This document shows positions 1-43,415 of a stretch of DNA of 44,790 bases, one piece after another. The notes beneath the pieces were generated by a model. That model had not been told where the DNA came from. It saw nothing but the letters and a program-made list of their open reading frames with translations, and ran no database searches. The DNA comes from a virus (lineage: Duplodnaviria > Caudoviricetes). Every line of letters starts with the position of its first letter. Position 1 is the first letter of the stretch. Made by a program: the position numbers and the translations under genes. The DNA lies in IMG/VR virus record IMGVR_UViG_3300025000_000029, positions 1-44,790 of that record. One strand, 5' to 3'.

Positions 1-127
1 AATGTATTGCTTGATCCGCTTGACCTTATTGGACCCGTTGGTAATGTTGCAATGGGGAAGGTTGGCAAGGTAACAGGTAACACAGCAATGCTTGATGCTT
101 TCGGATTCGATAACGCAGGTAAGAGTA
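1..127. repeat. Terminal direct repeat, copy 1 (circular assembly overlap)
   Basis: 1-127 is identical to 44664-44790; 127 is a common assembler k-mer length. Confidence 0.95.
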
Positions 128-9009: not shown

Positions 9010-9020
9010 GGATTGTACCT

Positions 9021-9040
9021 ATTGACATTTACTGTATAAT
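9021..9040 (+). promoter_or_regulatory. Putative late promoter of the head/tail operon
   Basis: ATTGAC-N8-TATAAT, same layout as 37856-37875. Confidence 0.55.
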
Positions 9041-9101
9041 AGAATTGTCGTAAGGTAATAAATAAATTGACTAGAATCAATTAAAAGTGCCTTACAGTTT
9101 C

Positions 9102-9144
9102 GGCGAATGACCGCTTGACAAATTGTTGAGCGGTTTTTTATTTT
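9102..9144 (+). terminator. Leader terminator/attenuator with GGCGAATGACCG box
   Basis: Stem ACCGCTTGACA/TGTTGAGCGGT plus T-tract, upstream of the AGGAGG RBS of the scaffold gene. Confidence 0.75.
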
Positions 9145-9157
9145 ACCAGGAGGTAGA

Positions 9158-9874
9158 TTGATGAGCGATACAAACCCTGTAAAGTTTCAAGCGCAACCGG
9201 AAGGCCAGCCGGAAGGTATTCCAACAGTGGATACCAACGCGCAGGGGAACGAACAGGCAGACAACAGTCAGAGACAACCGTTCGATATTCGCGAACTAGA
9301 GTCGATTGTTGAAAAAACTGTCTCAAAATCTTTGGAGAGTTTCTCACGGGAACAACAGAGCCAGAGAGACAGGATGGAAGCAAGGATTAAAGGTGAGGTT
9401 CAAAAGCAATTGAATGTGTACCAAAAAGCAGGCTATGAAGTAACTGACGACATGAAAGAAAAAGTTGAATCAGTTATCCGCAATGACATTGCAAATGAAT
9501 CTCGTAACAATGGTTCACTCCCAGCGGAAGGCCAACCGACAGGGAAGCAGGATCAAAGTACAGGTAATCCATCGGAGCAATTGGTTAATGCTGAACTTGA
9601 AGAACTTGACAAGCAATACGGCGTATCACTGAACAGGGATGATCCCGAAGCGCAGGAGATAAAAGATAATCTCAAACCGTTTCAATTTATACGCGCGTAC
9701 GAGCAAGCACTGAAAGCGAAAGCAGAACGCCTTGCATTGCCAGACCAGACCACACGCACACCATTCCAGCAAGTACATACAAGCGGTGGCGCTGGAACTC
9801 CCGGTAATCCATTAGCAAACATGACCAGTCCTGATGACATTTGGGGCGAAGTTAGAAAAACCATGAGGAGATAA
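9158..9874 (+). CDS. Putative capsid scaffolding protein
   Basis: Acidic/Q-rich helical protein directly upstream of the major capsid gene; AGGAGG RBS (start probably ATG 9161). Confidence 0.7.
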   Translation: MMSDTNPVKFQAQPEGQPEGIPTVDTNAQGNEQADNSQRQPFDIRELESIVEKTVSKSLESFSREQQSQRDRMEARIKGEVQKQLNVYQKAGYEVTDDMKEKVESVIRNDIANESRNNGSLPAEGQPTGKQDQSTGNPSEQLVNAELEELDKQYGVSLNRDDPEAQEIKDNLKPFQFIRAYEQALKAKAERLALPDQTTRTPFQQVHTSGGAGTPGNPLANMTSPDDIWGEVRKTMRR

Positions 9875-9877
9875 TCA

Positions 9878-10885
9878 ATGGCAGGAATTACTTTAGCACA
9901 ACTCGCGCAAGTGACCAAAGACCCGATTAAGAAATATGTCGGTATGCAGTTAATTCGCGAGAGCAAAATTTTAGAGATGTTACCGTTCGAGAATGTGAAC
10001 GGGTTGAACGTCAAGGCGTATTGGTGGGAAGTACTTCCCACAGGTGGCGCGTTCCGTTCTTTGAATGAGGGCTACACCTCGTATGAAGATGGACAATTAG
10101 GTGATGGTTCCGAATCTGTTTACGGGTTCGGCGGCGACATTACCTACGACACTGTATTGGAAAAGATCAAAGATGTAATCGGCGATCCCATTCAACTCCA
10201 GATTGATGCCCGTATCAAATCAATGGGTATCACATGGAATGACTATTTTATTAACGGTGATGTTGCAACTGACCCGAAAGGTTTCAACGGATTAAAGAAA
10301 CGTGTTGCGAGCATGGACACCCGCCAGACCATTTATGCAGCCGGATCAACCGCTGCACCAATGGACCCGACAGGTTCAGCCGCATTAGCACGTGGATTTA
10401 TCAACAAGTTCAATCGCGGTATCCGATACTGTAATGCTGGTGGATGCAACGCCATAATCATGAATGAAAACATGATTGTTGGATTCTCACAGGTATTGAG
10501 TTACATTCAAGGACAGGGGAACTACCTTTCCGTAACACAAGATCAATACGGACGGGAAGAGGTTTCATTCAGGGGCGTGAAGTTTGTTGATCCTGGATTG
10601 AAAAAAGATCAATCAACCGAAATCATTACTGAAACCGAAGTTGCCGGAGACGCAGGCGCGGACAGCACATCCATTTATTTCGTTGCTTTCAACAAAGACA
10701 ACGGCGTACATGGTATTCAATTGAGCGACTTCAACGCATACCAGGTTGGCAGCGGGGAATTGGAAGATTCACCAGCAAAGAAATGGCGTGTTGATTGGTG
10801 GAACGGTTTAGCCAGTTTCGGACGGCACGGTATTGTGCGCATGCGCAACATCGAAGCATTTGCTGACTGGACAGAAGGAGCATAA
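9878..10885 (+). CDS. Major capsid protein (HK97 fold)
   Basis: 335 aa; ILEMLPF...FRSLNEGY...FINGD...KGFNGLKKR motifs typical of BPP-1-like capsids; GAGGAG RBS. Confidence 0.85.
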   Translation: MAGITLAQLAQVTKDPIKKYVGMQLIRESKILEMLPFENVNGLNVKAYWWEVLPTGGAFRSLNEGYTSYEDGQLGDGSESVYGFGGDITYDTVLEKIKDVIGDPIQLQIDARIKSMGITWNDYFINGDVATDPKGFNGLKKRVASMDTRQTIYAAGSTAAPMDPTGSAALARGFINKFNRGIRYCNAGGCNAIIMNENMIVGFSQVLSYIQGQGNYLSVTQDQYGREEVSFRGVKFVDPGLKKDQSTEIITETEVAGDAGADSTSIYFVAFNKDNGVHGIQLSDFNAYQVGSGELEDSPAKKWRVDWWNGLASFGRHGIVRMRNIEAFADWTEGA

Positions 10886-10887
10886 TC

Positions 10888-11292
10888 ATGACTCACCCAT
10901 TTGATGATGAATTAATGTTTGCAACCGGAGCGGATTTAACCGCCAGTGTTTCACAAGGTCCATTGACTGTATATGGACAGATTGAAAAAGGGTTAGCCGT
11001 ACGTGTTGTGGTAGAGGATGCCTTTGGCGCAAACGACACCATGTTACCAAAAGTGTACTTATCCGCAGATAACAGCACTTACAACCTTGTCGCGCAATCA
11101 CATCTTGGCGCAACATTGGTTGACGGCGGTTACGAGTTCATGGTTCCATTCCCTGTACCAGCAGGTAAATGGTACGTAAAACTTGAACTTGTCTTAACTG
11201 CTGCTTCAACAACCTCGACTTTCACTGATGTGTACGCGGGCATTGTACCGAATGTCGGTCAACCATTTGACCGTACAAGTAATTGGGCATAA
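10888..11292 (+). CDS. Putative capsid decoration/cement protein
   Basis: 134-aa beta-rich protein right after the capsid gene, starts ..DDELMF (Bbp16-like position). Confidence 0.55.
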   Translation: MTHPFDDELMFATGADLTASVSQGPLTVYGQIEKGLAVRVVVEDAFGANDTMLPKVYLSADNSTYNLVAQSHLGATLVDGGYEFMVPFPVPAGKWYVKLELVLTAASTTSTFTDVYAGIVPNVGQPFDRTSNWA

Positions 11293-11307
11293 GCAAGTAG
11301 TACAACG

Positions 11308-11337
11308 ATAGGGGTGGGGAAACTCACCCCTATTTCA
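11308..11337 (+). terminator. Hairpin terminator after capsid/decoration genes
   Basis: ATAGGGGTGGG-GAAA-CTCACCCCTAT followed by TTC. Confidence 0.7.
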
Positions 11338-11350
11338 AAAAGGGAATAAG

Positions 11351-12070
11351 ATGGTTAAGGTTTTACTTGGCGCACCAACCACGCGGGATTTACCGATACC
11401 TTATGTCAGATCATTATGGATGACACAGCTAAAGGGAACGATCGCATGGGATACTATCTATGGACAGGCCGTTGATGTTGGCAGGAATAACCTTGTAAAA
11501 CGATTCCTTGAAAAGTACAAGGAATATGATTACTTATTGATGCACGATACCGATGCAACTTGGGATGGTACAGCCGTACAGCGGTTGGTTGACAGGCAGT
11601 TACCCATTGTAACCGGGATCATATTCAAGCGATCCATACCAACAGTGCCAACAATCGGAAAGTTTGTGAATATCAGCCCGGAAGGGAATCACATGTATTC
11701 ATACAAGGATGCAGTAAACAACATCCTTGATGTGGTTGAACGGGAAAAGATTGACCATAAGACGATAAATGAATTAGTGCTTGCTGAACAACCAGGACAG
11801 GTGAAAGAGATTGATGCAGCAGGCGCACATTTTATGTTGATACACAGGGACGTATTTACCGCCATTGGTGACAACTGGTATGAATGTACCCGGATGAACG
11901 CAGGCGAGGACTTCGCATTTTGCAGGAAGGCACAACGGGCAGGGTTCAAACTTCATGCAGATTTCAGCGTATTCACCGGACATCATTTGGGCGGCACAAT
12001 GGAAATTGGATTGCGCGAGTTCGTGTTGTATCACGACAACGAAAAAGTTGAAACAGAGTGGATAGCATAA
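11351..12070 (+). CDS. Glycosyltransferase, GT-A/GT2-like
   Basis: GRNNLVKRFL, DxD (HDTDA), GAHFMLIHRDVF, GEDFAFCRKA motifs. Confidence 0.8.
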   Translation: MVKVLLGAPTTRDLPIPYVRSLWMTQLKGTIAWDTIYGQAVDVGRNNLVKRFLEKYKEYDYLLMHDTDATWDGTAVQRLVDRQLPIVTGIIFKRSIPTVPTIGKFVNISPEGNHMYSYKDAVNNILDVVEREKIDHKTINELVLAEQPGQVKEIDAAGAHFMLIHRDVFTAIGDNWYECTRMNAGEDFAFCRKAQRAGFKLHADFSVFTGHHLGGTMEIGLREFVLYHDNEKVETEWIA

Positions 12071-12159
12071 CGTGGAAGCACATATTTATTTTATTCATGT
12101 ACGCGTTATTCATTTTGTTAATTTGGATGGAATGGGAGATTAGGGAAAAAAGAAAATGA
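12058..12159 (+). CDS. Small single-TM peptide (33 aa)
   Basis: GTG start, MDSITWKHIFILFMYALFILLIWMEWEIREKRK; ATGA overlap with the next gene. Confidence 0.4.
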   Translation: MDSITWKHIFILFMYALFILLIWMEWEIREKRK

Positions 12160-12983
12160 TAGAGATATTATATGCAATCCTGATTGGTTGGGCGTTTGAC
12201 AGAGCGCAGATGATGATTAGCGCACCAAACTATTCAGCCTATTTCAACGGTTTTGGAGCCATTGACCTTACTGTAAAGAAACAGGTTAAAGCACCAATGG
12301 CATACAGGGTATTGGTTCCATTCCTTGTTTCATGGATAGAACAAACATTCAAGGTTGAAGCAAAGTACAGAGTATTCATTTACCAGAACTTGAAAGCGTT
12401 CTTCGTGATCCTGGCGGCGTATTCTGTTATTCATGTATTTGGGATTGTTACCGCTTTACTTACATTCCTGATTCTATTATTGACCATCCAGTTTGATTAT
12501 TGGGATTGGCCGATTGAACTTGCGGCAGTTGTATTTGCAAGTGGGGGACATTTTGTACCCGCCTTGCTATTGGGAATATTATTTGCGTTCTCACGGGAAA
12601 CCGCTCCAATAACCGGATTCATTTACTGGATTGCAAGCGGTGATATTGCAGGTGGAATCATCATAAGCGGATTTACTGTATTGCTTATGTTAGGCGTGAG
12701 AATATTTGTTGGTCAGCGTGAACTATATTGCAAACGCGTTATGTGGAAAGACAACCTTATATTATTCAAGAACTTTTTGAAGTGGAAGCCGTTCGCATAC
12801 AGTCCGTTATTCGTAACAAGTGCAATAACAGCAGGATCATTAATCAGTGTAATTGTGAATCCACAGTATTGGTATTCACTTATTTTTATTATCGCGGGAT
12901 GGGTACTTGCAAAGGCAGACGAGCCACGAGTATTCTCCGCAGTCGTCCCATTTATTTCGTTAATGATTGGAGGTAGCCTATGA
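12156..12983 (+). CDS. Multi-pass membrane protein (possible GT-C-like transferase)
   Basis: Many hydrophobic helices; P..YRVLVP and RET motifs; next to the GT2 gene. Confidence 0.6.
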   Translation: MIEILYAILIGWAFDRAQMMISAPNYSAYFNGFGAIDLTVKKQVKAPMAYRVLVPFLVSWIEQTFKVEAKYRVFIYQNLKAFFVILAAYSVIHVFGIVTALLTFLILLLTIQFDYWDWPIELAAVVFASGGHFVPALLLGILFAFSRETAPITGFIYWIASGDIAGGIIISGFTVLLMLGVRIFVGQRELYCKRVMWKDNLILFKNFLKWKPFAYSPLFVTSAITAGSLISVIVNPQYWYSLIFIIAGWVLAKADEPRVFSAVVPFISLMIGGSL

Positions 12984-13264
12984 CATATATCTATGGATGC
13001 AGTGACAAAAATCACCCGATAGTTGAAGTTTCTCATTCATGGAAGGAGGTGGTCTCTCTCTCTTGTGATGTATGCGGACAGCCTATGAAACGCATACCAC
13101 AAGCATTTCAGATGCGCATACCACCCGCTGATAGTGGACAGCGCAATGCGAAAGAAATACATGGATATTTGAAATCCAAATGGAAAGCAAACAAAGAACG
13201 GCGAGAAGCCAACGAATACGAAAAACGAAAAGCACAGGAAAGGAAAACAAATCATGCCAACTAA
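12980..13264 (+). CDS. FmdB-like zinc-ribbon protein
   Basis: MTYIYGC..H...CDVCGQPMKR. Confidence 0.65.
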   Translation: MTYIYGCSDKNHPIVEVSHSWKEVVSLSCDVCGQPMKRIPQAFQMRIPPADSGQRNAKEIHGYLKSKWKANKERREANEYEKRKAQERKTNHAN

Positions 13265-13442
13265 ACCAGCACCAAGAACACCAAATACGCAAAAGCCGAG
13301 AGGAAAGGCAACGCCAACATCTAATTTACGAGATAAGGCGAATACTGGAACTTTGGTTCCTTATGTTAAAAGAACAACATTACCAACCACAGTGCCAACC
13401 AGTAAACCAATTGCAAAACTACCAAATAGACGAAGTAAATAA
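13254..13442 (+). CDS. Small basic P/T/K/R-rich protein
   Basis: 62-aa ORF coupled to neighbours; AGGA RBS. Confidence 0.5.
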   Translation: MPTKPAPRTPNTQKPRGKATPTSNLRDKANTGTLVPYVKRTTLPTTVPTSKPIAKLPNRRSK

Positions 13443-13454
13443 GGATAAAAAAGT

Positions 13455-13817
13455 ATGGCAACAAATCAGGAATTACAGGATGAACTAAAAAAGAAAAACG
13501 AAAAGATTCGTGACCTTGAAAAACAGGTAATGGAATTACAAACACAGGTTGAGATAATGGGAAACCAGGCGCAAGAAAGCAAAGGCTTATCCGGCTATGT
13601 CATCAGCACACCGAGCAAGACATACAGCGGCGTGACGATGGGTGTTGTATTCCGCAATGGCAGAGCGATTGTATTGGACAGCCAGGAAGCACCAGCGATT
13701 GTGAACGCATTACGCGCAGACTTTGGGTACACGGTTGAGCATGTGAAAAACTTACACGAGAAACCTGAAACCGCAGCAGATGTAAAGAAATCAATGATCG
13801 ACATATTAAGTAATTAG
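13455..13817 (+). CDS. Hypothetical protein with coiled-coil N-terminus
   Basis: ORF in late operon, AAGGA RBS. Confidence 0.7.
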   Translation: MATNQELQDELKKKNEKIRDLEKQVMELQTQVEIMGNQAQESKGLSGYVISTPSKTYSGVTMGVVFRNGRAIVLDSQEAPAIVNALRADFGYTVEHVKNLHEKPETAADVKKSMIDILSN

Positions 13818-13827
13818 GAGGATTATT

Positions 13828-14154
13828 ATGGCAGTAAAACAAGAGTCAGTTGTAATAGCGGAAGGTGGAACAATATCAACCGCTTTGAATCTAAACTATC
13901 GAGCCGTTATAACAATTGAATTTCCTGAAATGACAGGCACAAGCGTTGCGGTACACGGCAAGAATAATGCCGGAACATTTGAAGCATTGTATGACCAGGA
14001 CGGTATAGCAATAACAATTGCAACCCCATCCAACAAACTTATGAGTATTAATCCAACAAAAATATTTGGACAGAGTGAAATCAAGTTTGTGTCAAATGGC
14101 GCAGAAGCAGCAGCCCGTACAATTTATGTTCGTTCAGATTCCTACGTTGATTAA
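13828..14154 (+). CDS. Putative virion structural protein
   Basis: AGGAGG RBS; beta-rich 108 aa. Confidence 0.65.
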   Translation: MAVKQESVVIAEGGTISTALNLNYRAVITIEFPEMTGTSVAVHGKNNAGTFEALYDQDGIAITIATPSNKLMSINPTKIFGQSEIKFVSNGAEAAARTIYVRSDSYVD

Positions 14155-14211
14155 GCTAATGGCTGATACACAACCACGATTAGCGATAAAGCAGGGGAGA
14201 GGAGTGTAGCG

Positions 14212-15237
14212 ATGACAAGTGCAAAGAAGTTGTTGACGGTGTTGGGGAGTGCAGGTTATGCAAAACTTCCATATTCAGTTGATTTTACTGCACAAACAGA
14301 TGGAGCTTTACCAAATAATTGGAATGGAACTGCATGGGCTATTTCTAGTGCAAAAGCTATTAATACTCCGACACTTTCTGGAACAGAGTTAATAAATAAT
14401 CCAGGCTTTGAGGGAACATATTCTTCTGGGCTTGCTCCAAATTGGACTAAATATCCAGCAGGAACGGTAGTGTCAGAGAGTTCGGACGTTCACGGTGGTA
14501 CTGCTGCTCAATATGTTGGAAATGCCACTAGTAATGGTGGACAGGTGACATCAACAAATTTTGCATTAGTAGCAGGTGATTGGGTTAGATGTCATGGGTA
14601 TTATAAAGTCACTGGAAGTGCCATATTAAGGATTCAACAAGGATTTGGTTCATATACAGTTTTGCAACAGGTCACTCTTGCTGGAGCAGACTACACACAA
14701 AATTTCATGACTGCATTCATTCCAGAGAGCGGAAATCATGGGTTGAGTCCGGGGGCATTAAACCATGCAACAGCAGAAACAAATAATATTATTGCTGATG
14801 ACCACAGTACACAAAAATTGACAGCGTCAACTCTTTCAGCAGTATATGACATACAGTATAGGGGTGTATTAAAAGTTAGGGCATCAATGAGGGTTGGTAT
14901 TGTTGGACAACCTGCCGGAATTATTGGATGGTGGGATAAAGATAATTTATGGCAAAATATGCTTATAGCATACCATGATGGAGAAACGATAAAATTTGAA
15001 AAGTTAGTTGGATCTGTATGGACAAAACTTATAGGAGTAACAACTGCTACTTATGCCGCTGATGCTGACATTGAAATTAGGCGTCTTACTGGTACAAATA
15101 CCTTTCAGCTTTGGTATAACGATTCTCAAGTTGGTGCTAATCAAACCATAAGTGACACAGAAATAATCAATAACAAATATTTTGGTTTGCTATCAACAGG
15201 AGAAAGCAATAGCTTCGATGCGTTTTTTCTTGAGTAA
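14212..15237 (+). CDS. Putative virion carbohydrate-binding/receptor-binding protein
   Basis: ELINNPGFEG...PNW...HGG..AQ (CBM4/9-like) followed by a lectin-like beta domain. Confidence 0.55.
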   Translation: MTSAKKLLTVLGSAGYAKLPYSVDFTAQTDGALPNNWNGTAWAISSAKAINTPTLSGTELINNPGFEGTYSSGLAPNWTKYPAGTVVSESSDVHGGTAAQYVGNATSNGGQVTSTNFALVAGDWVRCHGYYKVTGSAILRIQQGFGSYTVLQQVTLAGADYTQNFMTAFIPESGNHGLSPGALNHATAETNNIIADDHSTQKLTASTLSAVYDIQYRGVLKVRASMRVGIVGQPAGIIGWWDKDNLWQNMLIAYHDGETIKFEKLVGSVWTKLIGVTTATYAADADIEIRRLTGTNTFQLWYNDSQVGANQTISDTEIINNKYFGLLSTGESNSFDAFFLE

Positions 15238-15244
15238 CAGTATT

Positions 15245-15739
15245 ATGAAAAATGTGACAGTTATTGGCGATAGTATAGCAGCCGCAGAAGATGGGTGGGC
15301 GTATTTATTAGATGCGTATGGAAACAAGGATATTTATGAAGTTAAAAACCATGCGGTATCGGGGGCAGCTATATTAGACGGTATGGATGCACAGGTTGTT
15401 GCATCTGCTTCTGATAATGCAGATATTATTATTTTAGCACTTGGAACTAATGATATTGGTGGAGATGTGGGGGCAGCAACAACTGAAGTAGAAGAAAATA
15501 TTATTGAATTAAAAACATCCAACCCTAACGCCACTTTATATTATATGAACGTATTAGATAGGGATGCAGATAATGAAACTGCAATTAGAGCTGCTATTGT
15601 AACGGCGTGTACTAATCAGTCTATTACTTGTTGGGACACTGATGGATGGATTGATCCTGCCACTGATACAGATGATGGGTTACATCCAAACGCAACGGGA
15701 CATGCAAAAATATTAGCAGAAGTTTTGGCACGAATCTAA
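15245..15739 (+). CDS. SGNH/GDSL hydrolase (esterase/deacetylase)
   Basis: Blocks IGDSI, AVSG, LGTND and DGLHPN..GH. Confidence 0.88.
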   Translation: MKNVTVIGDSIAAAEDGWAYLLDAYGNKDIYEVKNHAVSGAAILDGMDAQVVASASDNADIIILALGTNDIGGDVGAATTEVEENIIELKTSNPNATLYYMNVLDRDADNETAIRAAIVTACTNQSITCWDTDGWIDPATDTDDGLHPNATGHAKILAEVLARI

Positions 15740-15782
15740 ACAATCAACCCCCCACAACGATTATCAAGATTAGCATGAGGCA

Positions 15783-15913
15783 TGATGGATAGTATCAAGT
15801 TTGAGGCAGAAAGTATAAACAAACAAGGAGACAACAATGGCAAACGAGTTCAGACACGCAGACGCGGTAGCAGGGGAGCGTGATGGATAGTATCAAGTTT
15901 GAGACAAAAAGTA
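15783..15913. repeat. Two ~33-bp direct repeats flanking a 17-codon gene remnant
   Basis: TGATGGATAGTATCAAGTTTGAG(G/A)CA(G/A)AAAGTA at 15783-15815 and 15881-15913. Confidence 0.85.
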
Positions 15914-15923
15914 AAGGAGTAGC

Positions 15924-16694
15924 ATGACAACCTTTTATGATGTGATAAAAAGAGTAGCGCGACAGATTGCAGATGCAAGAGCGGGCGTTGCGACTGGTGG
16001 AAGCACAACAACATTGATTGATACATTGATGGATGAGCCGGATGACTTCTACGATGGCGGTCTTTTATTCATTGACCATACAGTTCCGGTCATTGTAAAG
16101 GTAACAGACTATGACTTTGCAACAACGACATTCACATTTGCAACAAGTACAGCCGTTGCAGCCGGAAAGTATTACACCGTTGTTGACGAAACATTTCCGC
16201 TTGATGTAATCAAACAGGCAGTCAATCAGGCATTGATTGAAGATGTTGGTCAGATCATGGCGGTTGACGAAACCTTAACAGGCGTTGAGGGACAGGAACG
16301 ATATACATTACCGGACGGCGTGTATGATGTGCGGCGTGTTGAAATTGGCGAGGAAGATGACGAGTGGCAAATAAACTATCACTGGACGGAAGAAATTGCA
16401 GAGCTTCGATTTATCAAAGACTTGCCGAGTGCAGACCAGACAATACGTGTTCATTACGTACATACCCATGATGAACTGATTGACCTTGACGATGTTGTTG
16501 ATGATCAGGTGAGCCTTGACTTACTCGTTCATGCAGCAAGCGCATACTGTATGCAATGGCGATATGCCAAAACAAAAGAGAATGATCCAGGTATCAAAGA
16601 CAAGATGACATTTCATGAAAGCAGAGCCATGATTGCTCGATCACGTAAACCAATCAAACTACTTAACCGCGATCCACACTTTGCGAGGTATTAA
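15924..16694 (+). CDS. Putative head-tail adaptor protein
   Basis: AAGGAG RBS; GQERYTLP..VYDVRRVE adaptor-like motif; precedes the nozzle-like gene. Confidence 0.6.
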   Translation: MTTFYDVIKRVARQIADARAGVATGGSTTTLIDTLMDEPDDFYDGGLLFIDHTVPVIVKVTDYDFATTTFTFATSTAVAAGKYYTVVDETFPLDVIKQAVNQALIEDVGQIMAVDETLTGVEGQERYTLPDGVYDVRRVEIGEEDDEWQINYHWTEEIAELRFIKDLPSADQTIRVHYVHTHDELIDLDDVVDDQVSLDLLVHAASAYCMQWRYAKTKENDPGIKDKMTFHESRAMIARSRKPIKLLNRDPHFARY

Positions 16695-16696
16695 AT

Positions 16697-19546
16697 ATGG
16701 CAGATACAATCCGCACCGAGCCAACCGAAAAGAAGATTACTCACCATGTATCATTCAGCAATGGCGGTACAGAATTAGGGTTAGTGTTATGTAACGGCTA
16801 TGGTAATCCAAGTACGCAAGGCATACGACAGGGAAAGATGCCGAACAGATCATTGCAGATCAGTCAGGGCGATCCTGATTATTCTGACATGGAATTACCC
16901 TACACGCCTATTACACAGAAAGATTGGTCAGGTGGCAGAGGTCAGGAAGATTTTGAAAAGGATAAGACCAGGTACAGCGACAGTCATACGATTGATGCAA
17001 TGATGGGTGAGGTAATGTTGGGGCCGAAGCCGACAGTTGCAAATGACGTTGGTGGATTTGCAAGCGGCACACCAATTGACAACACGCAGCAGGACGATGA
17101 AACTACACCAAACCCATTTACGGGAGGATTCTGGTCAGATGTTTCCGGCGAAGAAGTAACATATTTCGAGGATACTTGCACACTATCACGTAGATACCCA
17201 CCAGGAACATTACCTGTTTTAACTGTTCATTATCAAACAAGAGCAACAAGGTTCCAATACACAGACGCAAATCCATTGATGCAAATAAAACTAAAACTTT
17301 CCAATACTTCAAAGGTGACAATCGCAATAAGAGAAGCAACTACGGTTGACATATCTACCGACCAAAAGAAAAAAGATTTATATGATTTGTTGGTAAAGCT
17401 CGAATCTTTAGGGACATACGAAAAGTCAGAAACATTTGACATTGTTAAGGCAACAACATTAACGGAATACACATTTGATTTTAATCACACAATGGTTGAA
17501 GATGCGTATTATTGGCTGATTGTCAGGAATGAAAATATTTTAATGAATGACGATCCGCTTGATTTTGATTTTTCTGTTGGAACAAATGACACACCGAGTA
17601 CGTATGAATTTAGGGGAGTTCAAGGTTTTTATAATTCAATCAAGGCAACGTACAGCACAGGTTATGAATATGTAAAATATTGTGCTTCGATTTCTGATAA
17701 TACTGGTGATAGTCTAGCATACTCATTGATACCACTTGGCGAATCATCCGGCGATGCACACTTCTTTACTCTCCGCAATACAAAGTTTGTTATTATGTCA
17801 CCATCAGACGGAAGCGCACCCAAACTTTACATGGAAGGCTATCACGGGTATGCAGCAGCAGCCAACACAGGTGAATTGACGAAGATACACGCAAGGAATA
17901 TTGGCGCAGAAGCGGATGGTTGCATTGTAAAACTTGTTGGTGGTCCGGGTTCTACTGAACGAACACGATGGCGCGAGATTGATTCGGTTACAACGGGCGC
18001 GAGTGGATACCTGATTGTCGATCCGGCGTGGAAAATTGTGCATACAACCAGTACAGAATTTGCGGTCATTGGTACAGAAACATGGACGGAAATAACCGGA
18101 CACGGATTGACGACAGCAGTAACAGACGTAATGGTTGTTAATGACATTGTGTACTTTGCGCAGGGTGAGAGCGTAAAACTCCGGCGTATGACCTGTTACA
18201 ACAATTCAGGAGCATGGGCGTTCAAGTTTGCAGAAGAAGATTACTACGCAACCTTTATGGAACTTATTCAGAAAGAGGATGGCACGTTAAGAATTTGGCG
18301 TGCATTGGCAACCGCTTCAACCGTATCAAGTTCAGCAGTTGCAGCATGGCAGGACAGTACAGCAAAGATTTTATCTTTCGGTTCCGATATTACTTGCGGT
18401 AATACAATGTACCGTATCAATGGACTTGTCGCTTATGGTACACCGCGTATCCCTTATGTGCTGAAAGAAGATGGCTTTGGAGCAATCTCCAACGACATAT
18501 ACGATCAGGTTCCACTGGCTGAATTTGCAGCAGTAGCAGACGACAACAATGGACGCGCCAATTTGCAGAGAGGGGTATATCTATACCTTACTTTGCTCAA
18601 TGGGGTTGAAAGATATTACGAAGGCAGACTTGACGACATTGGACCTAACAGAGATTTAGGATTGCCGAACAATCGCAATGGGGTTGTATCCAGCATGTTG
18701 GCTTATCCAGGCAGAATGTACGCAAGTATTGACCATCCAACTGGATACAGCGCGGTACTTGTTTATAACGATGTTGGCTGGCATGAGATTTATAGATCGT
18801 CTTTAGCTGGAAGAATTTACAAAATGGATGTGCAGGTTATTGATGGTGATAGTTGCGATAGATTGTGGATGGCACAGGAAGGTAGAATTGTTTGGCTTCC
18901 GATTGCCATTGATCCGAAGAAGCAGGATGATTACACCTACAATCCAACCGGAAGTATTGAAACATCATGGATTAACAGCAACTTCAAAGAGATCAAAAAG
19001 TATTTCAGTAGCATTGAAATCTTTAGTGAAGGGTTAACCGCAGGCGCACAGTACGTAAGAATATCGTACAAGGTTGATGACGATGATGATGATTGGACAG
19101 AGATTGACGATGACGTTGACGAGTCACCATCACAGGAGATTGAGTTTCCGAATCACGCAGTCTATGGAAAACGTATCAAGATAAAACTTGTGCTTTACAC
19201 AACGGACACGAGCAGCAGTCCACGTATCAAGGGTATCACGATCAAACCCGTAACCAGGTTGCCACTCAAAAAATCATGGTCAATGACATTCAGGGTTGAT
19301 GATAGTATCCATGACTTGCAGGGAATACAATCAGAGCTTGACGGGTATGACCTTATGGCGCAGCTTGAAGCATGGGCTGATAGCAACACAACCCCGACCC
19401 CATTACTCATGAATGTTCCACACCTTTTATTCAACAACAAGTACGTATTCATTGAGCCGGAGAGCTTACGACCTATTCAATGGATTACAGGTGATAACAA
19501 AAAAGACCTTGTTGGCATTGGTCAATTGACGGTGTACGAGGCGTAA
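16697..19546 (+). CDS. Putative tail nozzle/stabilization protein (podovirus-type)
   Basis: 949-aa beta-rich protein; DWSGGRGQ N-terminal motif; follows adaptor. Confidence 0.6.
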   Translation: MADTIRTEPTEKKITHHVSFSNGGTELGLVLCNGYGNPSTQGIRQGKMPNRSLQISQGDPDYSDMELPYTPITQKDWSGGRGQEDFEKDKTRYSDSHTIDAMMGEVMLGPKPTVANDVGGFASGTPIDNTQQDDETTPNPFTGGFWSDVSGEEVTYFEDTCTLSRRYPPGTLPVLTVHYQTRATRFQYTDANPLMQIKLKLSNTSKVTIAIREATTVDISTDQKKKDLYDLLVKLESLGTYEKSETFDIVKATTLTEYTFDFNHTMVEDAYYWLIVRNENILMNDDPLDFDFSVGTNDTPSTYEFRGVQGFYNSIKATYSTGYEYVKYCASISDNTGDSLAYSLIPLGESSGDAHFFTLRNTKFVIMSPSDGSAPKLYMEGYHGYAAAANTGELTKIHARNIGAEADGCIVKLVGGPGSTERTRWREIDSVTTGASGYLIVDPAWKIVHTTSTEFAVIGTETWTEITGHGLTTAVTDVMVVNDIVYFAQGESVKLRRMTCYNNSGAWAFKFAEEDYYATFMELIQKEDGTLRIWRALATASTVSSSAVAAWQDSTAKILSFGSDITCGNTMYRINGLVAYGTPRIPYVLKEDGFGAISNDIYDQVPLAEFAAVADDNNGRANLQRGVYLYLTLLNGVERYYEGRLDDIGPNRDLGLPNNRNGVVSSMLAYPGRMYASIDHPTGYSAVLVYNDVGWHEIYRSSLAGRIYKMDVQVIDGDSCDRLWMAQEGRIVWLPIAIDPKKQDDYTYNPTGSIETSWINSNFKEIKKYFSSIEIFSEGLTAGAQYVRISYKVDDDDDDWTEIDDDVDESPSQEIEFPNHAVYGKRIKIKLVLYTTDTSSSPRIKGITIKPVTRLPLKKSWSMTFRVDDSIHDLQGIQSELDGYDLMAQLEAWADSNTTPTPLLMNVPHLLFNNKYVFIEPESLRPIQWITGDNKKDLVGIGQLTVYEA

Positions 19547-19548
19547 GG

Positions 19549-19938
19549 ATGGCAGAGAAACCAGGACAGCCTAACAGACTACGCGAGCAAGAGCCACAGA
19601 TCAACTTGGTACATGGCATTATGCCGGACAGCAAGAACGAATATTATGTTGCGCTTGCACTGGATAAGTTTGGCTATGATTACCACTTTCAAAAACTGTT
19701 AGGCATGGGTGGTATTCGAGGATCACAGATAATTGACTTTGTTGTATTTACAGGTGGTGGAGCAAGAGCGGTATTTGTGCAGGGTGAATACTGGCATGGC
19801 GCAAAATCGGAAAGCGAGGACGTACTTAAACATGCAATTGCAGCGCAGGTATATGGCGCGGGGAATGTGATTGACTTCATGGGTGAGGAAACTGACACGC
19901 CGGAGAAGGCAGAACAAACAGTAAAGGCGAAACTATGA
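19549..19938 (+). CDS. PD-(D/E)XK / Vsr-DUF559-like nuclease-fold protein
   Basis: E..V..AL...IIDFVVF...AVFVQGEYWHG. Confidence 0.55.
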   Translation: MAEKPGQPNRLREQEPQINLVHGIMPDSKNEYYVALALDKFGYDYHFQKLLGMGGIRGSQIIDFVVFTGGGARAVFVQGEYWHGAKSESEDVLKHAIAAQVYGAGNVIDFMGEETDTPEKAEQTVKAKL

Positions 19939-20438
19939 CAGACATAAAACAACTGGAAGAAAGAATACTACGCCTTGAAAAACACAATGCGGAAGTTTAC
20001 AGGCAGCGTAAAGGATTACACGTTGAGCCTAACAGAAATATATTAGGACAGGACACGTACATTGATGGCAATTTATATCTGAATAATTATGCCGCTGGTA
20101 TCTGGACTACTTGGGCGCCGACAATAACGTGGGATGGTACGGCGCCAACATCATTATCAGGAACATCGGTATTTAGATATTGCATTATCGGCAAAGCAGT
20201 TGCCATAAATGGTTATGCGATTTATGGATCAGCAGGAGCTACCAATACCATTGTAACTGTAACATTACCAATTGCACCGCATCCAGACCGGGCAGCGCAA
20301 GCAGCTCATGGAGTAGTAGGAAATACAGAAAACTTGACAAGAGCAATTATAAGACCAACCACAGACGACATATATCTGTCCTGTACAAGTATTGCAGCAG
20401 CACGCTTGTTGTTTATGGCAATTTATGAGATTGCATAA
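19935..20438 (+). CDS. Putative tail fibre/receptor-binding protein
   Basis: WTTWAPT...RYCIIGKAV...TLPIAP...IYEIA, a common fibre C-terminal module. Confidence 0.55.
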   Translation: MTDIKQLEERILRLEKHNAEVYRQRKGLHVEPNRNILGQDTYIDGNLYLNNYAAGIWTTWAPTITWDGTAPTSLSGTSVFRYCIIGKAVAINGYAIYGSAGATNTIVTVTLPIAPHPDRAAQAAHGVVGNTENLTRAIIRPTTDDIYLSCTSIAAARLLFMAIYEIA

Positions 20439-20447
20439 GGAGCAGAC

Positions 20448-21389
20448 ATGAAACCAATAGTAGATATTTCATTTTGGCAACCAGCTTCATCCATTGACTA
20501 CGATAAGTTAGCGGAATCTGTCAGCGGCGTAATCCTACGTGGTGCGTATGGTATCTGGAAAGATACGCAGTTTGAAAAACACTACGAGGAATTGTCAAAA
20601 CGAAATGTACCATTGGGGACGTATCATTATGTCATCGGTAATCAAACAGGCAAGCAGCAGGCAGCGGTATTTTACGAAGCAGTAAAGGGTAAGAAATTCA
20701 AACTTGGATTATGGAATGATGTAGAAGATCGCAGGGATATTACCGGATTATCCAGCAGCGTTGTAATTGAATATCATACAGAGATTGAAAGACTTGTTGG
20801 TCATAAGGTTGGTATTTATACGGGCGTGTACGCATGGTTTGAAATCATGGGGAGCAAGTCAACCATGTACGCAGATCGAGATTTATGGATTGCTCATTAT
20901 GGCGTGATCGTCCCATCCTTACCACGACAGGGCGGTTGGAAAGCATGGGTAATATGGCAACATACCGACAACCTGAAAGTTGATTGGTATTACTCCGGCG
21001 TTGATGGCAATAAGTTCAATGGCACAGATCAGGAATTTATCAATCATTTCAACCTGGCGGATGTACTACCTCCGGCAATCCCGATTGGTACATTCTGGTG
21101 TGAGTATTGCGGACAGTACACAGAGAATGATAGTCGCGGTCATTGCGGTAAATGCGGCGCACCACGAGAAGGATGGATACCGCAACCACAGGCAGCAAGT
21201 TTACGCACAACGAAAATCGTTAATATCCGAACCGCACCAAACACCAGTGCATCAAGTGTTGGCGTGAGAAGTGTTGGAGCAGAGGTTGAAGTATTGGAAA
21301 TCTATATTGCATCATCAAATAGTGTATGGGTAAAGGATTCATTTGGTTGGAGCGCAGCCGTACACGCAGGCGTAAAGTACATGGAATAA
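20448..21389 (+). CDS. Endolysin: GH25 muramidase + zinc ribbon + SH3b-like domain
   Basis: VDISFWQ, GTYHY, DVE, LWIAHY, IWQHT, VDGN; CEYC..CGKC; VNIRTAPNTSA. Confidence 0.88.
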   Translation: MKPIVDISFWQPASSIDYDKLAESVSGVILRGAYGIWKDTQFEKHYEELSKRNVPLGTYHYVIGNQTGKQQAAVFYEAVKGKKFKLGLWNDVEDRRDITGLSSSVVIEYHTEIERLVGHKVGIYTGVYAWFEIMGSKSTMYADRDLWIAHYGVIVPSLPRQGGWKAWVIWQHTDNLKVDWYYSGVDGNKFNGTDQEFINHFNLADVLPPAIPIGTFWCEYCGQYTENDSRGHCGKCGAPREGWIPQPQAASLRTTKIVNIRTAPNTSASSVGVRSVGAEVEVLEIYIASSNSVWVKDSFGWSAAVHAGVKYME

Positions 21390-21454
21390 CAATCAATAAT
21401 TAGTCTAAACCTAATTATCGCAATACCAATGTTAGCCAAACGCAAAGGAGCAAC

Positions 21455-22279
21455 ATGGTTGCAAAAACAATTGTGGCAATAATCAGTGATACCCATATTG
21501 GCAGCAGCACAGCACTTGCACCGCCTACATTCACCATCCATAACCGGGACACAGACGAGGAACAGATTGTAGATTACAACCGCTTACAATCCTGGCTATG
21601 GGGTAACTGGATTGACTATTGGGATTATGTAAAATTCCTGGCAGGTTGGACCAGCAAGAAAAAACGCAAGCACCGGATTGTTGTTGTGCATGTTGGGGAT
21701 GTAATTGATGGCAACCATCATGGAAGTAATCAGATCATTCAGGATGTTGGCGATCAGGCACTTGTAGCGATTGAAATATTACAACCCATTGTCGATATGG
21801 CTGACGCGTTCTTTGGTATATTGGGAACTGAAGCACACGCAGGCAATGGACAGGCTGATGAGATAGGAATTTATAAACTACTTGGGGTAACAGAGTACAA
21901 CCAAAACCTGATGATTGAAATTGACGGCAAGCTGCATGACTTTGCACATCATGGCAGGACAGGAACAAGACCCTGGACAAGCGCAGCCGCAAGCATTGGG
22001 GTTGAGGTATTGCTTGATTGTGGAAGATCAGGATTGCCTTACCCGGATTATATCTGGCGTGGTCACAAACACGAGATTGATGACAGCGGAAACAAACTGG
22101 AAGGAACGAGGGTAATCAGTTTACCATCCTGGCAATTGAAAACAGCATTTGTTAATCGGGTTGCTGCAAACAAAAGGCGATCCGATATTGGAGGATACAT
22201 TGTGAATGGTGGCATTATTGACGATAGTAAATCAAGGTATCAGGGACAGCCGGACAGCAGGAGGATAATTAAAATCTAA
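21455..22279 (+). CDS. Calcineurin-like metallophosphoesterase
   Basis: SDTHIG, GDVIDG, GTEAH, HHG and GHKH motifs. Confidence 0.82.
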   Translation: MVAKTIVAIISDTHIGSSTALAPPTFTIHNRDTDEEQIVDYNRLQSWLWGNWIDYWDYVKFLAGWTSKKKRKHRIVVVHVGDVIDGNHHGSNQIIQDVGDQALVAIEILQPIVDMADAFFGILGTEAHAGNGQADEIGIYKLLGVTEYNQNLMIEIDGKLHDFAHHGRTGTRPWTSAAASIGVEVLLDCGRSGLPYPDYIWRGHKHEIDDSGNKLEGTRVISLPSWQLKTAFVNRVAANKRRSDIGGYIVNGGIIDDSKSRYQGQPDSRRIIKI

Positions 22280-22500
22280 TGACAGAAAATGAATTACTTG
22301 AAGAACTTGCAAGGGAATTAGAGATACCAACAATAAGACCGGACGAGATAACCGTTAAGATGTTTGCCGAACGATTGAATATCACCAACAGAATGGCGCA
22401 CGGAATGTTAATGAAAATGGTTGAAAGTGGAAAACTAAAAAAGAGATTCGTACGGGGAGAGCAGCAAAGGATACTGGCTTTCAGCAAGGTTGAAGAATAG
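22279..22500 (+). CDS. Small winged-HTH-like protein
   Basis: ITVKMFAERLNIT...L.KMVESGKL; coupled start. Confidence 0.6.
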   Translation: MTENELLEELARELEIPTIRPDEITVKMFAERLNITNRMAHGMLMKMVESGKLKKRFVRGEQQRILAFSKVEE

Positions 22501-24063: not shown

Positions 24064-24145
24064 AGACTAACACCCTCCCGTTCAGACAAATTGTTGAACC
24101 TTCGAGTGTTAGTCTATTACAAAGGAGTAGGCTACTGCCTACCAG

Positions 24146-35059: not shown

Positions 35060-35060
35060 C

Positions 35061-37329: not shown

Positions 37330-37524
37330 ATGGCAGATAAAAAAGAACTTGAAGTCATAATCGCGCAGGTATTATCAATGGACATTGACCAGGTTGCGGA
37401 GCTTGCAACAGCACTTGACGAGGTAAGACAGAGCAACTATGGCAAGGTTGAGATTCTTGTTAAGGATGAGCAGGTTTATCAGATCAACCGGACGAAGAAC
37501 GGGAAACCGAAGTGGAAGAAGTGA
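37330..37524 (+). CDS. DUF2292/YezD-like small protein
   Basis: AGGAG RBS; L.EV....YGKVEILVKDEQVYQINRT matches my recollection of the DUF2292 pattern. Confidence 0.6.
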   Translation: MADKKELEVIIAQVLSMDIDQVAELATALDEVRQSNYGKVEILVKDEQVYQINRTKNGKPKWKK

Positions 37525-37834: not shown

Positions 37835-37855
37835 TTACCAACAGGCAACTAATCT

Positions 37856-37925
37856 ATTGACTGACATGCTATAATAACAATAAGGCGAATGACCGGGAGT
37901 AGTATCTTCCGGTCATTTATTTTTA
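37856..37925 (+). promoter_or_regulatory. Late promoter plus leader terminator with GGCGAATGACCG box
   Basis: ATTGAC-N8-TATAAT; stem AATGACCGGGAG/CTTCCGGTCATT plus T-tract. Confidence 0.75.
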
Positions 37926-37947: not shown

Positions 37948-38193
37948 ATGTCAATTTTACAATCATTATTACACTCACGGAAATTTTGGTTAGCGGTATT
38001 TGGTATCGTCCAGGCTTTGGTACTCAATTACTTTCAAGTACCAGAGGATATTTGGCAGTCCGTTGTTGGGCTTGTCATGGTGCTGATCGCTGGTATTGCA
38101 ATCGAAGATGCAGGCGAGAAGTCAGGTAATGCAATCCATATTCACCAACAACCGCAGGATGTTGAAGAAGCATTAAAAGAACATCAAGGATAA
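37948..38193 (+). CDS. Holin
   Basis: SRKFWLAV motif, two TM helices, charged tail. Confidence 0.75.
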   Translation: MSILQSLLHSRKFWLAVFGIVQALVLNYFQVPEDIWQSVVGLVMVLIAGIAIEDAGEKSGNAIHIHQQPQDVEEALKEHQG

Positions 38194-38199
38194 CAGCAC

Positions 38200-38613
38200 A
38201 TGGAAGCAATCATCACAGCAATAATTGGATTAGTAGGTGGTGGAATAGGGGCTGCAATTGTAAACGGGATTTTTTCAAGGCGTAAAGAAAAAGCTACGGC
38301 TTTACAAATTGATACCACGACAAAGCAGATTGAGAACACGACAACCAGGTCGAGCGGTGACGCGTGGAAAGAGTTTGCCGAGAAGATGGAACAACGGGAA
38401 AAAGACATGGACAACCGCGTTAAATGTTTGGAAGCTGAACAAGAGCAAACCAAAAAAGATCAGGCAAAAACTGATAGAAAGCTCACCAGATATGGCAAGC
38501 GGATTGTTGAGTTAACCGAAGGATTACAAAAGTTGATTGAACAGATTGTCGGGTTAGGACATACGCCCTGTTATACACCAACAGAGTGGAGTCCAGATAA
38601 AGATGAAGATTAG
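38200..38613 (+). CDS. Holin-like membrane protein (N-terminal TM + coiled coil)
   Basis: AIITAIIGLVGGGIGAAIV followed by coiled coil. Confidence 0.6.
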   Translation: MEAIITAIIGLVGGGIGAAIVNGIFSRRKEKATALQIDTTTKQIENTTTRSSGDAWKEFAEKMEQREKDMDNRVKCLEAEQEQTKKDQAKTDRKLTRYGKRIVELTEGLQKLIEQIVGLGHTPCYTPTEWSPDKDED

Positions 38614-38625
38614 GGTGCAACAAAA

Positions 38626-39039
38626 ATGAAACAAAAACCAATGGTGTGGACGAAGCAAAATAACGAGATTGCTTTGCTACTTGCACAAGGATACACGGAA
38701 ACCGAAGTGTCTAAGCGCGTTGGAGTCAATAGATCAACTGTATCAAGACGTAAAAATGATCCTGAATTTATGATGGAAGTTGACAAACTTGCATTGATGG
38801 TAGGGGTTGCGAGCAGGGCAGAACGATTGAAGATTGTTAACACTGTCTTACGTCAAAAGATACAGGATGAAATTGCAAAGACCGACAAGGATTTACTTGA
38901 CTGGTTGAAGTATGCACAATCAGAAACAGACGGTATCAAACTCAATCTCGTTGGAAACCTTGCCTCCATCCTTACGAATGATCCATCTTTGGCCGGAAGC
39001 GGACAAACAGGAACTATTAGCGAGGACGGGGAAGAATAA
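38626..39039 (+). CDS. terS: Terminase small subunit (HTH)
   Basis: N-terminal HTH (EVSKRVGVNRSTVSR..NDPEF) directly upstream of terL. Confidence 0.75.
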   Translation: MKQKPMVWTKQNNEIALLLAQGYTETEVSKRVGVNRSTVSRRKNDPEFMMEVDKLALMVGVASRAERLKIVNTVLRQKIQDEIAKTDKDLLDWLKYAQSETDGIKLNLVGNLASILTNDPSLAGSGQTGTISEDGEE

Positions 39040-39706
39040 AAAGAAACCAATAGAGATTTGGCAACCACAAAGAAAGCAGGCAACAGCATTAAAGATGTTG
39101 GGCTTGCTTGATGCGTTATATGGGGGCGAGGTATCTCCGTCATTGGCTGAACGTAATGGGTATGGTGGTGCAGCAGGTGGAGGAAAGACAGACCTTATCG
39201 TTGGGGTTGGGTTGATTGCTTGTATGACTATTCCAAGTGTTAAGGTTGGAGTGTTTCGGCGTACTTATCCAGAACTCGAAGGAGCGGACGGACCCATAGA
39301 AAGATCATTGAGTTTATACCCACAGGCAGGCGCGAAGTATAACGCAAGCAAACACGTGTGGACATTCCCGGATATATCAACTGGTATTGTTGGATCACTT
39401 GATGGGAAAGATGATGAGGGAGAGGACTGGTTGAGAACATCCGCGCCAGCATTGCGATTCTGTCAGGTCCCGAACGACAAGGACAAACACAAATATCAAT
39501 CATGGGCTTTCGATGTATTGATGATCGATGAAGCAACAAACTTTCCGTGGGGAATTGTAGATTATTTATTGACACGTAACCGCAAGTCCAGGAACTCAAA
39601 GATACCCGTACCATTCAGTTTGTTTTCAGCGAATCCGGGAATGATAGGTCACATGTGGTACAGGAAACAGTTTGGCATTTACGGGGAGTTATATCATGGC
39701 AACTAA
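38951..39706 (+). CDS. terL: Terminase large subunit, ATPase part (start uncertain, 38912-38978)
   Basis: WQPQ.KQ, Walker A GGAAGGGKT, Walker B LMIDEA, motif III SANPG. Confidence 0.88.
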   Translation: METLPPSLRMIHLWPEADKQELLARTGKNKKKPIEIWQPQRKQATALKMLGLLDALYGGEVSPSLAERNGYGGAAGGGKTDLIVGVGLIACMTIPSVKVGVFRRTYPELEGADGPIERSLSLYPQAGAKYNASKHVWTFPDISTGIVGSLDGKDDEGEDWLRTSAPALRFCQVPNDKDKHKYQSWAFDVLMIDEATNFPWGIVDYLLTRNRKSRNSKIPVPFSLFSANPGMIGHMWYRKQFGIYGELYHGN

Positions 39707-40553
39707 TACCTTGATTGATTGGCGAACCGTTGACCTTGAAATGCCAGAGGTAAAGAACGTTGAGAACCCGAACGCCATACAGGAACGGACGATATTCTTA
39801 CCATCGTTTCTCGAAGATAACCCAGCATTGACAGGCCGTGATCCGGGATATGAACAACGATTGATGAAGCGTGACCCGAAGATTGCGCAGGCTTTACGCT
39901 TTGGTAATTGGGATGTATTTGCAGGGCAGATGTTCTCACAGTTCAGCCGGGCAAGGCATGTGATTACACCATTTGAGATACCGCTTACGTGGTCACGATT
40001 ACGCGCAATAGATTGGGGATTTGCTGATCCGTTTGCTTGCTATTTTATCGCGATCAATCCAGCCAATAAGCAGCGCATTGTTTACAAAGAAATATATAAG
40101 TCCGGCTTATCTGATCCAGCACAAGCGGAAATGGTCAGGTCATACGAACAGATAGGGGAATCATTTGGATTCAACTTTGCTGATCCATCCATGTGGACAC
40201 GGCGCACAACTGAAATGGTTGCAAAGAGTACATACGATGTTTATATAGAGCATGGGGTATTGCTCACGAAAGCAGACAATGACAACCGTTCAAAGATTGC
40301 AAAGACTCACTCAATATTGGCAGATCAATGGTACGGACAACCAGGCGTATTGATATTCAACACCGTAACAAATTTGATAAACACATTGGGCGCATTGGTA
40401 AGAGACGAGAACAACCCGGAAATGATTAAGGATGGTCAAGAAGATCACGCATGGGACGCGTTTGCATACTCCCTTACCAATTGGTCAGATGATAAACCGA
40501 AACAAACACAGGAACAGAAACCCAACCCATTCACGAAGATGAAAGGATTATAA
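39696..40553 (+). CDS. terL: Terminase large subunit, lid + RNase H-like nuclease part
   Basis: GGGGAG RBS; FLPSFLEDNP, G.WD, AIDWG, ADPS, EDHAWDA..Y. Confidence 0.88.
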   Translation: MATNTLIDWRTVDLEMPEVKNVENPNAIQERTIFLPSFLEDNPALTGRDPGYEQRLMKRDPKIAQALRFGNWDVFAGQMFSQFSRARHVITPFEIPLTWSRLRAIDWGFADPFACYFIAINPANKQRIVYKEIYKSGLSDPAQAEMVRSYEQIGESFGFNFADPSMWTRRTTEMVAKSTYDVYIEHGVLLTKADNDNRSKIAKTHSILADQWYGQPGVLIFNTVTNLINTLGALVRDENNPEMIKDGQEDHAWDAFAYSLTNWSDDKPKQTQEQKPNPFTKMKGL

Positions 40554-40555
40554 GG

Positions 40556-42361: not shown

Positions 42362-42577
42362 ATGCTCAACATCCTTGACCTTGATGACGTAATGATGAAC
42401 GGTAAAGCAAAACTTGACAGTTACAAGCGTGACTTTGAGAAGCAATACTACGCGCCACTTGTTGAAATGCAGATGGCTGAAATGTGGCAGAACATGCCGG
42501 ATGAAATAAAACTCCAATTACGCCAGGAAAACAAACAGGCGTTCAACCGATTAGACAAGAAGTTAGGAGGTACATAA
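42362..42577 (+). CDS. Hypothetical protein
   Basis: AGGAGG RBS; coupled. Confidence 0.7.
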   Translation: MLNILDLDDVMMNGKAKLDSYKRDFEKQYYAPLVEMQMAEMWQNMPDEIKLQLRQENKQAFNRLDKKLGGT

Positions 42578-43389: not shown

Positions 43390-43415
43390 TCAAACTAAAC
43401 CTATAAGGCGGTAAC

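Follow-up and report, generated by a model that had tools for sequence, protein, structure and literature searches.

In the RAT systems, an intrinsic terminator is overlapped on its 5' arm by a hairpin of 23-30 nt that a protein stabilises, and the genes controlled in this way are sugar genes, as described in PMC4347634. The N protein of phage lambda is presented in PMC8632103 as an unstructured protein of about 110 amino acids that binds boxB via an arginine-rich motif, needs boxA as well as Nus factors, and acts on early-to-middle genes; for the lambdoid Q proteins, the same account (PMC8632103) describes loading at a paused polymerase from a DNA site that lies between -35 and -10. Finally, the description of the conAn system of pLS20-type plasmids in PMC8191782 assigns the ConAn1 domain to PF17362, and conAn2 is there a long RNA that acts processively.

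The window studied here, a stretch of 44,790 nucleotides from a tailed phage, can be compared with each of these systems. As in the case of BglG, SacY and LicT, a small RNA hairpin that shares sequence with the 5' arm of a terminator would be stabilised by a protein. However, the phage box is 12-13 nt long, phage-specific and located in front of late genes, in contrast to the 23-30 nt of RAT in front of sugar genes (PMC4347634), and the candidate protein has only 64 amino acids and would be controlled by the time of its synthesis; neither CAT nor PRD gave a Pfam match in the 55 ORFs of the window or in 135 homologues. A small phage protein and a phage-specific RNA site at two promoters are reminiscent of lambda N and nut, but late genes would be gated by the phage site, which overlaps a terminator, and a folded structure is predicted for the protein (pLDDT 90.6); Pfam and PHROGs revealed no N-family match among the 55 ORFs. 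With Q and its binding element, the locus would share a leader terminator that follows a host-polymerase promoter and blocks the late genes, and a factor whose gene stands at the end of the early-right region, whereas no Q homologue is present among the 55 ORFs and the phage box is part of the transcript and coupled to the terminator. The combination of a small protein with an RNA element that opens a long operon recalls conAn, but PF17362 has no match in the 55 ORFs or in 135 members of the candidate family. The best reading of these comparisons is that the phage switch would work like RAT, yet with a protein that differs from BglG, N, Q and ConAn1, i.e. protein-mediated antitermination with a new protein family.

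The phage is temperate, and its circular genome of about 44.66 kb is complete (direct terminal repeats, 127-nt terminal overlap, 100% completeness). Pfam and PHROGs assigned functions among the 55 ORFs that include an integrase, a cI-like repressor, RecT, DnaD/DnaC-like proteins, terminase, portal, capsid and endolysin; the labels holin-like and scaffold-like, as well as Com-like for a gene of the relative G017, were given from sequence and position. The two late operons are about 16 and 13 kb long. Relatives were collected with capsid and portal profiles, which resulted in 49 records including the window (one of them in part), and the relatives have the same gene order as the window phage. 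A related capsid is encoded on four genome contigs, and because two of the four are Chloroflexota MAGs, the host may tentatively be placed in this phylum.

It had been proposed from the sequence alone that an identical 12-nt box is fused to a leader terminator in front of both late operons, and our analysis bears this out: GGCGAATGACCG occurs exactly at the two sites listed in Table 1, both on the plus strand, and the window holds no other copy within one mismatch. At both sites, the 3' part of the box forms the 5' base of a terminator-like stem, to which it contributes five bases at site 1 and nine at site 2. T-rich tails follow the stems (9134-9144 and 37916-37924), and both upper stems pair yet differ in sequence. 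The stems have folding z-scores of -3.3 (site 1) and -5.6 (site 2) with none of 200 shuffles being as stable, and compensatory changes in the stem of terminator 1 are present in the relative L001. This genome contains 315 repeated 12-mers, so a repeated 12-mer is by itself unremarkable; a 12-mer common to the two intergenic stretches arose by chance in nine of 5000 shuffles; when about 20000 window pairs were drawn at random, 62 had one in common. A scan of viral contigs for the exact box returned 120 loci that were judged to be chance matches by folding and context. In an Rfam scan, only a tRNA was detected in the window and no family on the leaders, a result whose bearing on RAT depends on the coverage of RAT in Rfam.

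The same sequence-only reading had placed the two box-terminators between a promoter and the first RBS. This arrangement stands as far as a TATAAT upstream and an RBS and start codon downstream are concerned, but a sigma-70 scan called neither TATAAT a promoter. No -35 element is found 16-18 nt from either TATAAT, and CTATTGAC lies exactly 8 nt before both; this could be a second, DNA-level input. The TTGAC spacing of the lysis/packaging element is preserved in the mosaic relative L466. Across the records, the distance from TTGAC to the -10 element peaks at the canonical value, with 9 counts at 8 nt as compared to about 2-5 at neighbouring distances. A TTGACA inside terminator 1 that was flagged by the promoter scan was rejected as it is lost in L001. 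The box starts at about +56 at site 1 and about +3 at site 2 relative to the promoter, while its position relative to the terminator is fixed. The question whether the box acts as RNA or DNA had initially been left open; recognition at the RNA level is now favoured because the box keeps its place with respect to the terminator rather than the promoter and because the larger leaders described below covary. In agreement with what had been stated before, neither Q nor RinA, ArpU or sigma factor genes were detected among the 55 ORFs with Pfam and PHROGs; the sole sigma-family row is that of the terminase small subunit, matched weakly through an HTH.

Table 1. Features of the window discussed in the text (promoter functions and the extent of late operon 1 are inferred).
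Feature	Position	Strand	Remarks
Promoter-like element, head/tail operon	9019..9040	+	CTATTGAC, 8 nt, TATAAT (9035-9040); identical in L001
5' leader hairpin between promoter and box 1	9050..9095	+	RNAfold; 9050-9093 identical in L001
Box 1	9102..9113	+	predicted small hairpin (C)GGC-GAAU-G-A-CC(G), 3' strand = terminator base (RNAalifold on 8 boxes; -1.2 kcal/mol)
Leader terminator 1	stem 9109-9135 + T tail, to 9144	+	precedes RBS 9148-9153 and scaffold-like gene at 9161
Late operon 1	9161..22500	+	scaffold-like, major capsid, adaptor, tail/nozzle-like proteins, endolysin
DUF2292/YezD-like gene, candidate antiterminator	37330..37524	+	64 aa; last but one of the early-right region; 360 nt upstream of site 2
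Promoter-like element, lysis/packaging operon	37854..37875	+	CTATTGAC, 8 nt, TATAAT (37870-37875); extended -10 TGcTATAAT
Box 2	37884..37895	+	~3 nt past inferred transcription start; identical in L466
Leader terminator 2	stem 37887-37918 + T tail, to 37924	+	precedes holin-like gene at 37948
Late operon 2	37948..44790, across circular junction to 9009	+	holin-like, terminase small, terminase large (two-part), portal, giant protein

Eight short boxes can be aligned without gaps, and RNAalifold folds them into GGC, a 4-nt loop, G, one bulged base and CC. The box is thus predicted to form a small hairpin that cannot coexist with the paired base of the terminator. The predicted hairpin has -1.2 to +0.7 kcal/mol as compared to -16 to -20 for the terminators; being that marginal, it would need a bound factor. 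In L001, which has a promoter region identical to that of the window, box positions 1 and 11 and the 3' arm of the terminator change together so that both pairings are kept; this is the only compensatory change among the short boxes and statistically weak (61 of 500 shuffles). In other records, a larger form of the leader consists of a helix P1, an AGA-containing internal loop and a helix P2; the terminator arm contains the 3' strand of P1. When the 5' strands of 24 larger leaders were grafted between records, the observed pairing was reached in none of 2000 cases for P1, in 12 of 2000 for P2 and in 4 of 2000 for both, with anchors that had been set by eye on the same sequences that suggested the model. 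Shuffling of the upstream 35 nt in 38 leaders revealed no excess pairing with the terminator base (combined p 0.32). The scores of these 38 leaders exceeded those of 60 control terminators (p 0.003), but shuffled leaders also scored higher. RNAalifold on an unguided MAFFT alignment of 20 larger leaders gave no consensus pairs.

The search for the box in the relatives identified the same design of paired leader terminators, but with a box sequence that differs from record to record. Phage-specific shared boxes are CGGCCATAGACCGCTG in G025, AAGGCCAAGGCCCG in G003, CGACAGAAACAGGGTT in G030 and GAGACCGGGG in G022, and in G020, CCGACAGACG is common to three leaders. Ten of 13 leader pairs from the same record share at least 10 nt (10-17 nt; mean over pairs 11.2), with one chromosomal pair and one tandem pair inside a single leader among the 13, whereas this was the case for none of 236 pairs taken from different records (mean 4.9, maximum 9). 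The remaining three pairs, from G021, G059 and G075, share only 4-6 nt. In many other relatives, the -10 element directly precedes the RBS and there is no terminator. Five records that lack leader terminators (G004, G015, G005, G008 and G009) have, by eye, DNA motifs upstream of the promoter that are common to both late promoters, and this sharing suggests DNA-level activators in these phages. G017 (L146, L225-L227) carries paired leader terminators before the holin and scaffold genes with a different shared hairpin, no DUF2292-like gene, and a small gene for a Com-like zinc-finger protein directly upstream; this may be a second, independent late switch.

The factor had not been named before, and the gene that is now our candidate, an ORF encoding a DUF2292-like protein, had been overlooked. 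Its product scored 21.4 bits against Pfam PF10055 and 20.9 bits in another scan, both below the cut-off of 22, and matched the OscA model (NF033785) with an E-value of 0.0017, below the 85-bit cut-off; 27 of 135 homologues match PF10055 at E <=0.05. Judged by these profiles and by Atlas leads, the protein appears to be a distant relative of DUF2292/YezD. Look-alikes were first picked by eye in five terminator-bearing records, and a profile of these six proteins found an unseeded seventh in G025 (E 4e-8). The 135-sequence profile then matched G059, G075 and G077, none of which had been inspected before, and all three have the terminator. The predicted model has the order alpha-alpha-beta-beta, with helices at 2-14 and 19-34 and strands at 37-45 and 48-57. 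Natural tandem doubles of the protein exist, which suggests that it may act as a dimer. Position 50 in the second strand is R or K in 62% of the family and tyrosine in the proteins of the window and of G025, both of which have short boxes; it is tempting to speculate that this residue is linked to the box type. That the window protein does not have the arginine found here in most family members speaks against the proposed role. Fold searches with the model were uninformative (Foldseek against PDB and viral structures without a match at E 0.001; best Z 3.8 with VIA), and for a natural tandem homologue the best row (Z 6.2, rmsd 4.7, 92 aligned residues) was tied with unrelated ones. A PDB sequence search with the 64-aa protein and a tblastn search of cultured phages gave no match. 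We found no molecular function for DUF2292/YezD/OscA in our literature searches, and neither their listings nor Rfam yielded an antitermination role for DUF2292, yezD or oscA; subscription journals and RNA-motif supplements, which could hold the motif, lie outside this coverage.

This gene and the leader terminators co-occur. A terminator in the scaffold leader is present in all ten scored records with the gene and in one of 21 without it (Fisher p 2.5e-7), with three calls set by eye: G010 was taken as positive in spite of four T only, G015 and G018 as negative as the hairpin spans or precedes the -10 element. With the raw calls of the script, the numbers are 9 of 10 versus 3 of 21 (p 1e-4, or 5e-4 if the weak match in G081 is counted as positive). 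These counts refer to 31 of the 49 records, after exclusion of 11 fragments, the near-duplicate G065, G024, G026 and G027 that lack a portal of the window type, G055 and G080 in which the leader was not located, and G014, which has no scaffold ORF. On a FastTree portal tree with 30 rows, gene and terminator change eight times each; six of seven independent contrasts agree and none disagrees (p 0.031), and with the raw calls the median p is 0.0625. Among 51 window genes, the DUF2292-like gene segregates best with the terminator (7 of 10 versus 0 of 19 with the window protein alone as the query), followed by the gene for the cI-like HTH protein (5 of 10 versus 0 of 19) and the low-complexity ORF 42577 (6 of 10 versus 2 of 19); the zinc-ribbon, wHTH and RHH genes did not co-segregate and were rejected as the factor. 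In L466, where the neighbouring genes are swapped, the 64-aa protein is 96% preserved. Two records have the gene on the opposite strand and at a large distance from the leaders, a location compatible with a trans-acting factor. Partial loci with both gene and leader terminator are L323, L338 and L324. There are also records with other combinations: G001, the closest long relative of the window (76% capsid), lacks the gene and the scaffold terminator and has a terminator before terS; G081 combines a weak gene match (E 0.085) with the absence of a terminator; terminators and no gene match occur in G024 and G027, which belong to another family outside the count. L368 contains the gene and no leader terminator in the stretch examined, L363 has a terminator and a look-alike only below threshold, and L327/L328 have a terminator in loci with little upstream DNA.

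Homologues of the protein are also encoded on bacterial chromosomes: the profile matched in 39 of 401 sampled genomes from the class of an Anaerolineae MAG. A larger-form leader follows within 170 nt after 12 of 36 chromosomal copies (30 loci) as compared to 15 of 916 background tiles, using a pattern that was derived from the same loci in which it was counted. Terminators are not enriched after the chromosomal homologues (9 of 26 downstream versus 12 of 26 upstream); thus, not every chromosomal copy gates a terminator. Some chromosomal leaders have kept the motif and lack a clear T tail, and Rfam gave nothing at gathering level in 12 chromosomal loci. In Anaerolineae, the family also stands at the head of polysaccharide operons. 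Among 21 scanned neighbours, two Wzz-type proteins and two glycosyltransferases occur alongside one acyltransferase-like protein; three further neighbours belong to the NusG family and one is a terminase small subunit. Tandem arrays of the DUF2292-like gene and its leader are present in L448, L442, L454, L451 and L453, and a NusG-family gene directly follows the array in L448, L451 and L453; the order in L448 is gene, leader-terminator, gene, leader-terminator, NusG paralogue.

That a box-plus-terminator switch gates both late operons, as initially suggested, thus receives comparative support from the paired leader terminators with their own boxes in the relatives and from the co-occurrence with one small gene. 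In the explanation that we regard as probable, the 64-aa protein would capture the box hairpin in the nascent RNA and by local antitermination switch on both late operons. Host RNA polymerase would start at the -10 elements at all times and stop after about 40 and 90 nt. Upon induction, the early-right transcript would supply the DUF2292-like protein, probably as a dimer. By binding to the box while the leader is being transcribed, the protein would prevent base pairing at the foot of the terminator and thereby turn on both late operons at once. The protein would act locally at each leader, as BglG and SacY do on RAT hairpins, and local action would suffice because no strong intergenic terminator was found inside either late operon. 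This last observation, the presence at each late promoter of its own box overlapping its own terminator, and the failure to see a boxA-like element or an arginine-rich motif all argue against a protein that loads at the box and then travels with RNA polymerase, as in processive antitermination by lambda N/nut or ConAn1/conAn2; moreover, the protein is predicted to be compactly folded, whereas N is described as unstructured (PMC8632103). The length of the late operons, the position of chromosomal homologues at the head of polysaccharide operons with NusG-family genes among their neighbours (3 of 21), and the chromosomal leaders without a clear T tail would fit such a processive factor, which we nevertheless consider unlikely.

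The leader might be the switch while another phage gene, a host protein or the host homologues provide the factor and the small gene merely travels along. G017, G024, G027 and G001, in which leader terminators are present and the gene was not detected, point in this direction, as do the co-occurrence of the cI-like HTH gene and ORF 42577 and the homologues in host-type genomes. However, the DUF2292-like gene is the best of the 51 genes and is retained among swapped neighbours in L466, and simple linkage is unlikely because the gene changes its place between records, where it may precede the promoter, lie 4 kb away, belong to the late operon or be encoded on the opposite strand; this explanation is distinctly unlikely. 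We judge it very unlikely that the protein acts on DNA as an activator or a loader of the Q type, with either the box or the CTATTGAC of the promoter spacer as its binding site. A canonical -35 is missing from both promoters, CTATTGAC sits where the Q-binding element is placed in PMC8632103, and the weak fold rows are ribbon-helix-helix proteins (Z <=3.8); but the distance between box and promoter differs by about 50 nt between the two sites, in the other gene-bearing records the spacers of the two promoters have, by eye, no motif in common, the gain and loss of terminators with the gene would be left unexplained by an activator, and the paired changes in L001 and in the larger leaders point to RNA. 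It is highly improbable that the box is just a duplicated piece of a terminator without a regulatory role and that the hairpins dampen expression or end upstream transcripts: repeated 12-mers are common in this genome and the box is partly constrained by terminator pairing, but the two sites also share its unpaired 5' part while differing in their upper stems, other records show the same pattern with boxes of their own, and the hairpins sit downstream of -10 elements.

Beyond local antitermination in this phage, we lean slightly towards a broader view in which DUF2292/YezD-like proteins form a widespread, hitherto undescribed group of minimal RNA-binding antiterminators with swappable specificity. 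Temperate phages would repeatedly gain and lose the protein and the leader terminators together, as a late switch that replaces Q or DNA activators, and the hosts would use the same module before polysaccharide operons in series with NusG paralogues; the operator of the window phage would be a stripped-down version of 12 nt. If this is true, a family of unknown function that is present in phages and bacterial chromosomes would obtain a molecular function, and phages would have a route of late gene control distinct from Q, N and DNA activators. Moreover, pairs of proteins of 60-90 residues and RNAs of 12-30 nt with differing sequences would form a natural set of candidates for orthogonal switches.

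The genome has several other features. The terminase large subunit is encoded by two overlapping ORFs (38912-40553), and this split is probably natural because the protein is also in two parts in G025, G030 and L338. A giant ORF of more than 3000 codons spans the circular junction (43389-44790 and 1-9009) and contains an ART-PolyVal ADP-ribosyltransferase-like domain; its product is probably an ejected polyvalent protein. A tRNA-Gly(TCC) gene (24145-24217, minus strand) adjoins the integrase gene and is likely the attachment site, and the early-right region contains three DNA methyltransferase genes (33167-36313). Glycosyltransferase-like and membrane-protein genes within the head operon (11351-12983) are common in the relatives, and glycosylation of the particle is possible. 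Finally, a strong hairpin with a T tail is located upstream of an HNH-like gene (30508-30585), and its loop is complementary over at least 11 nt to a stretch 30 nt upstream; it is possible that this element is a pseudoknot or a switch, and a similar layout can be seen by eye in G001 and G078.
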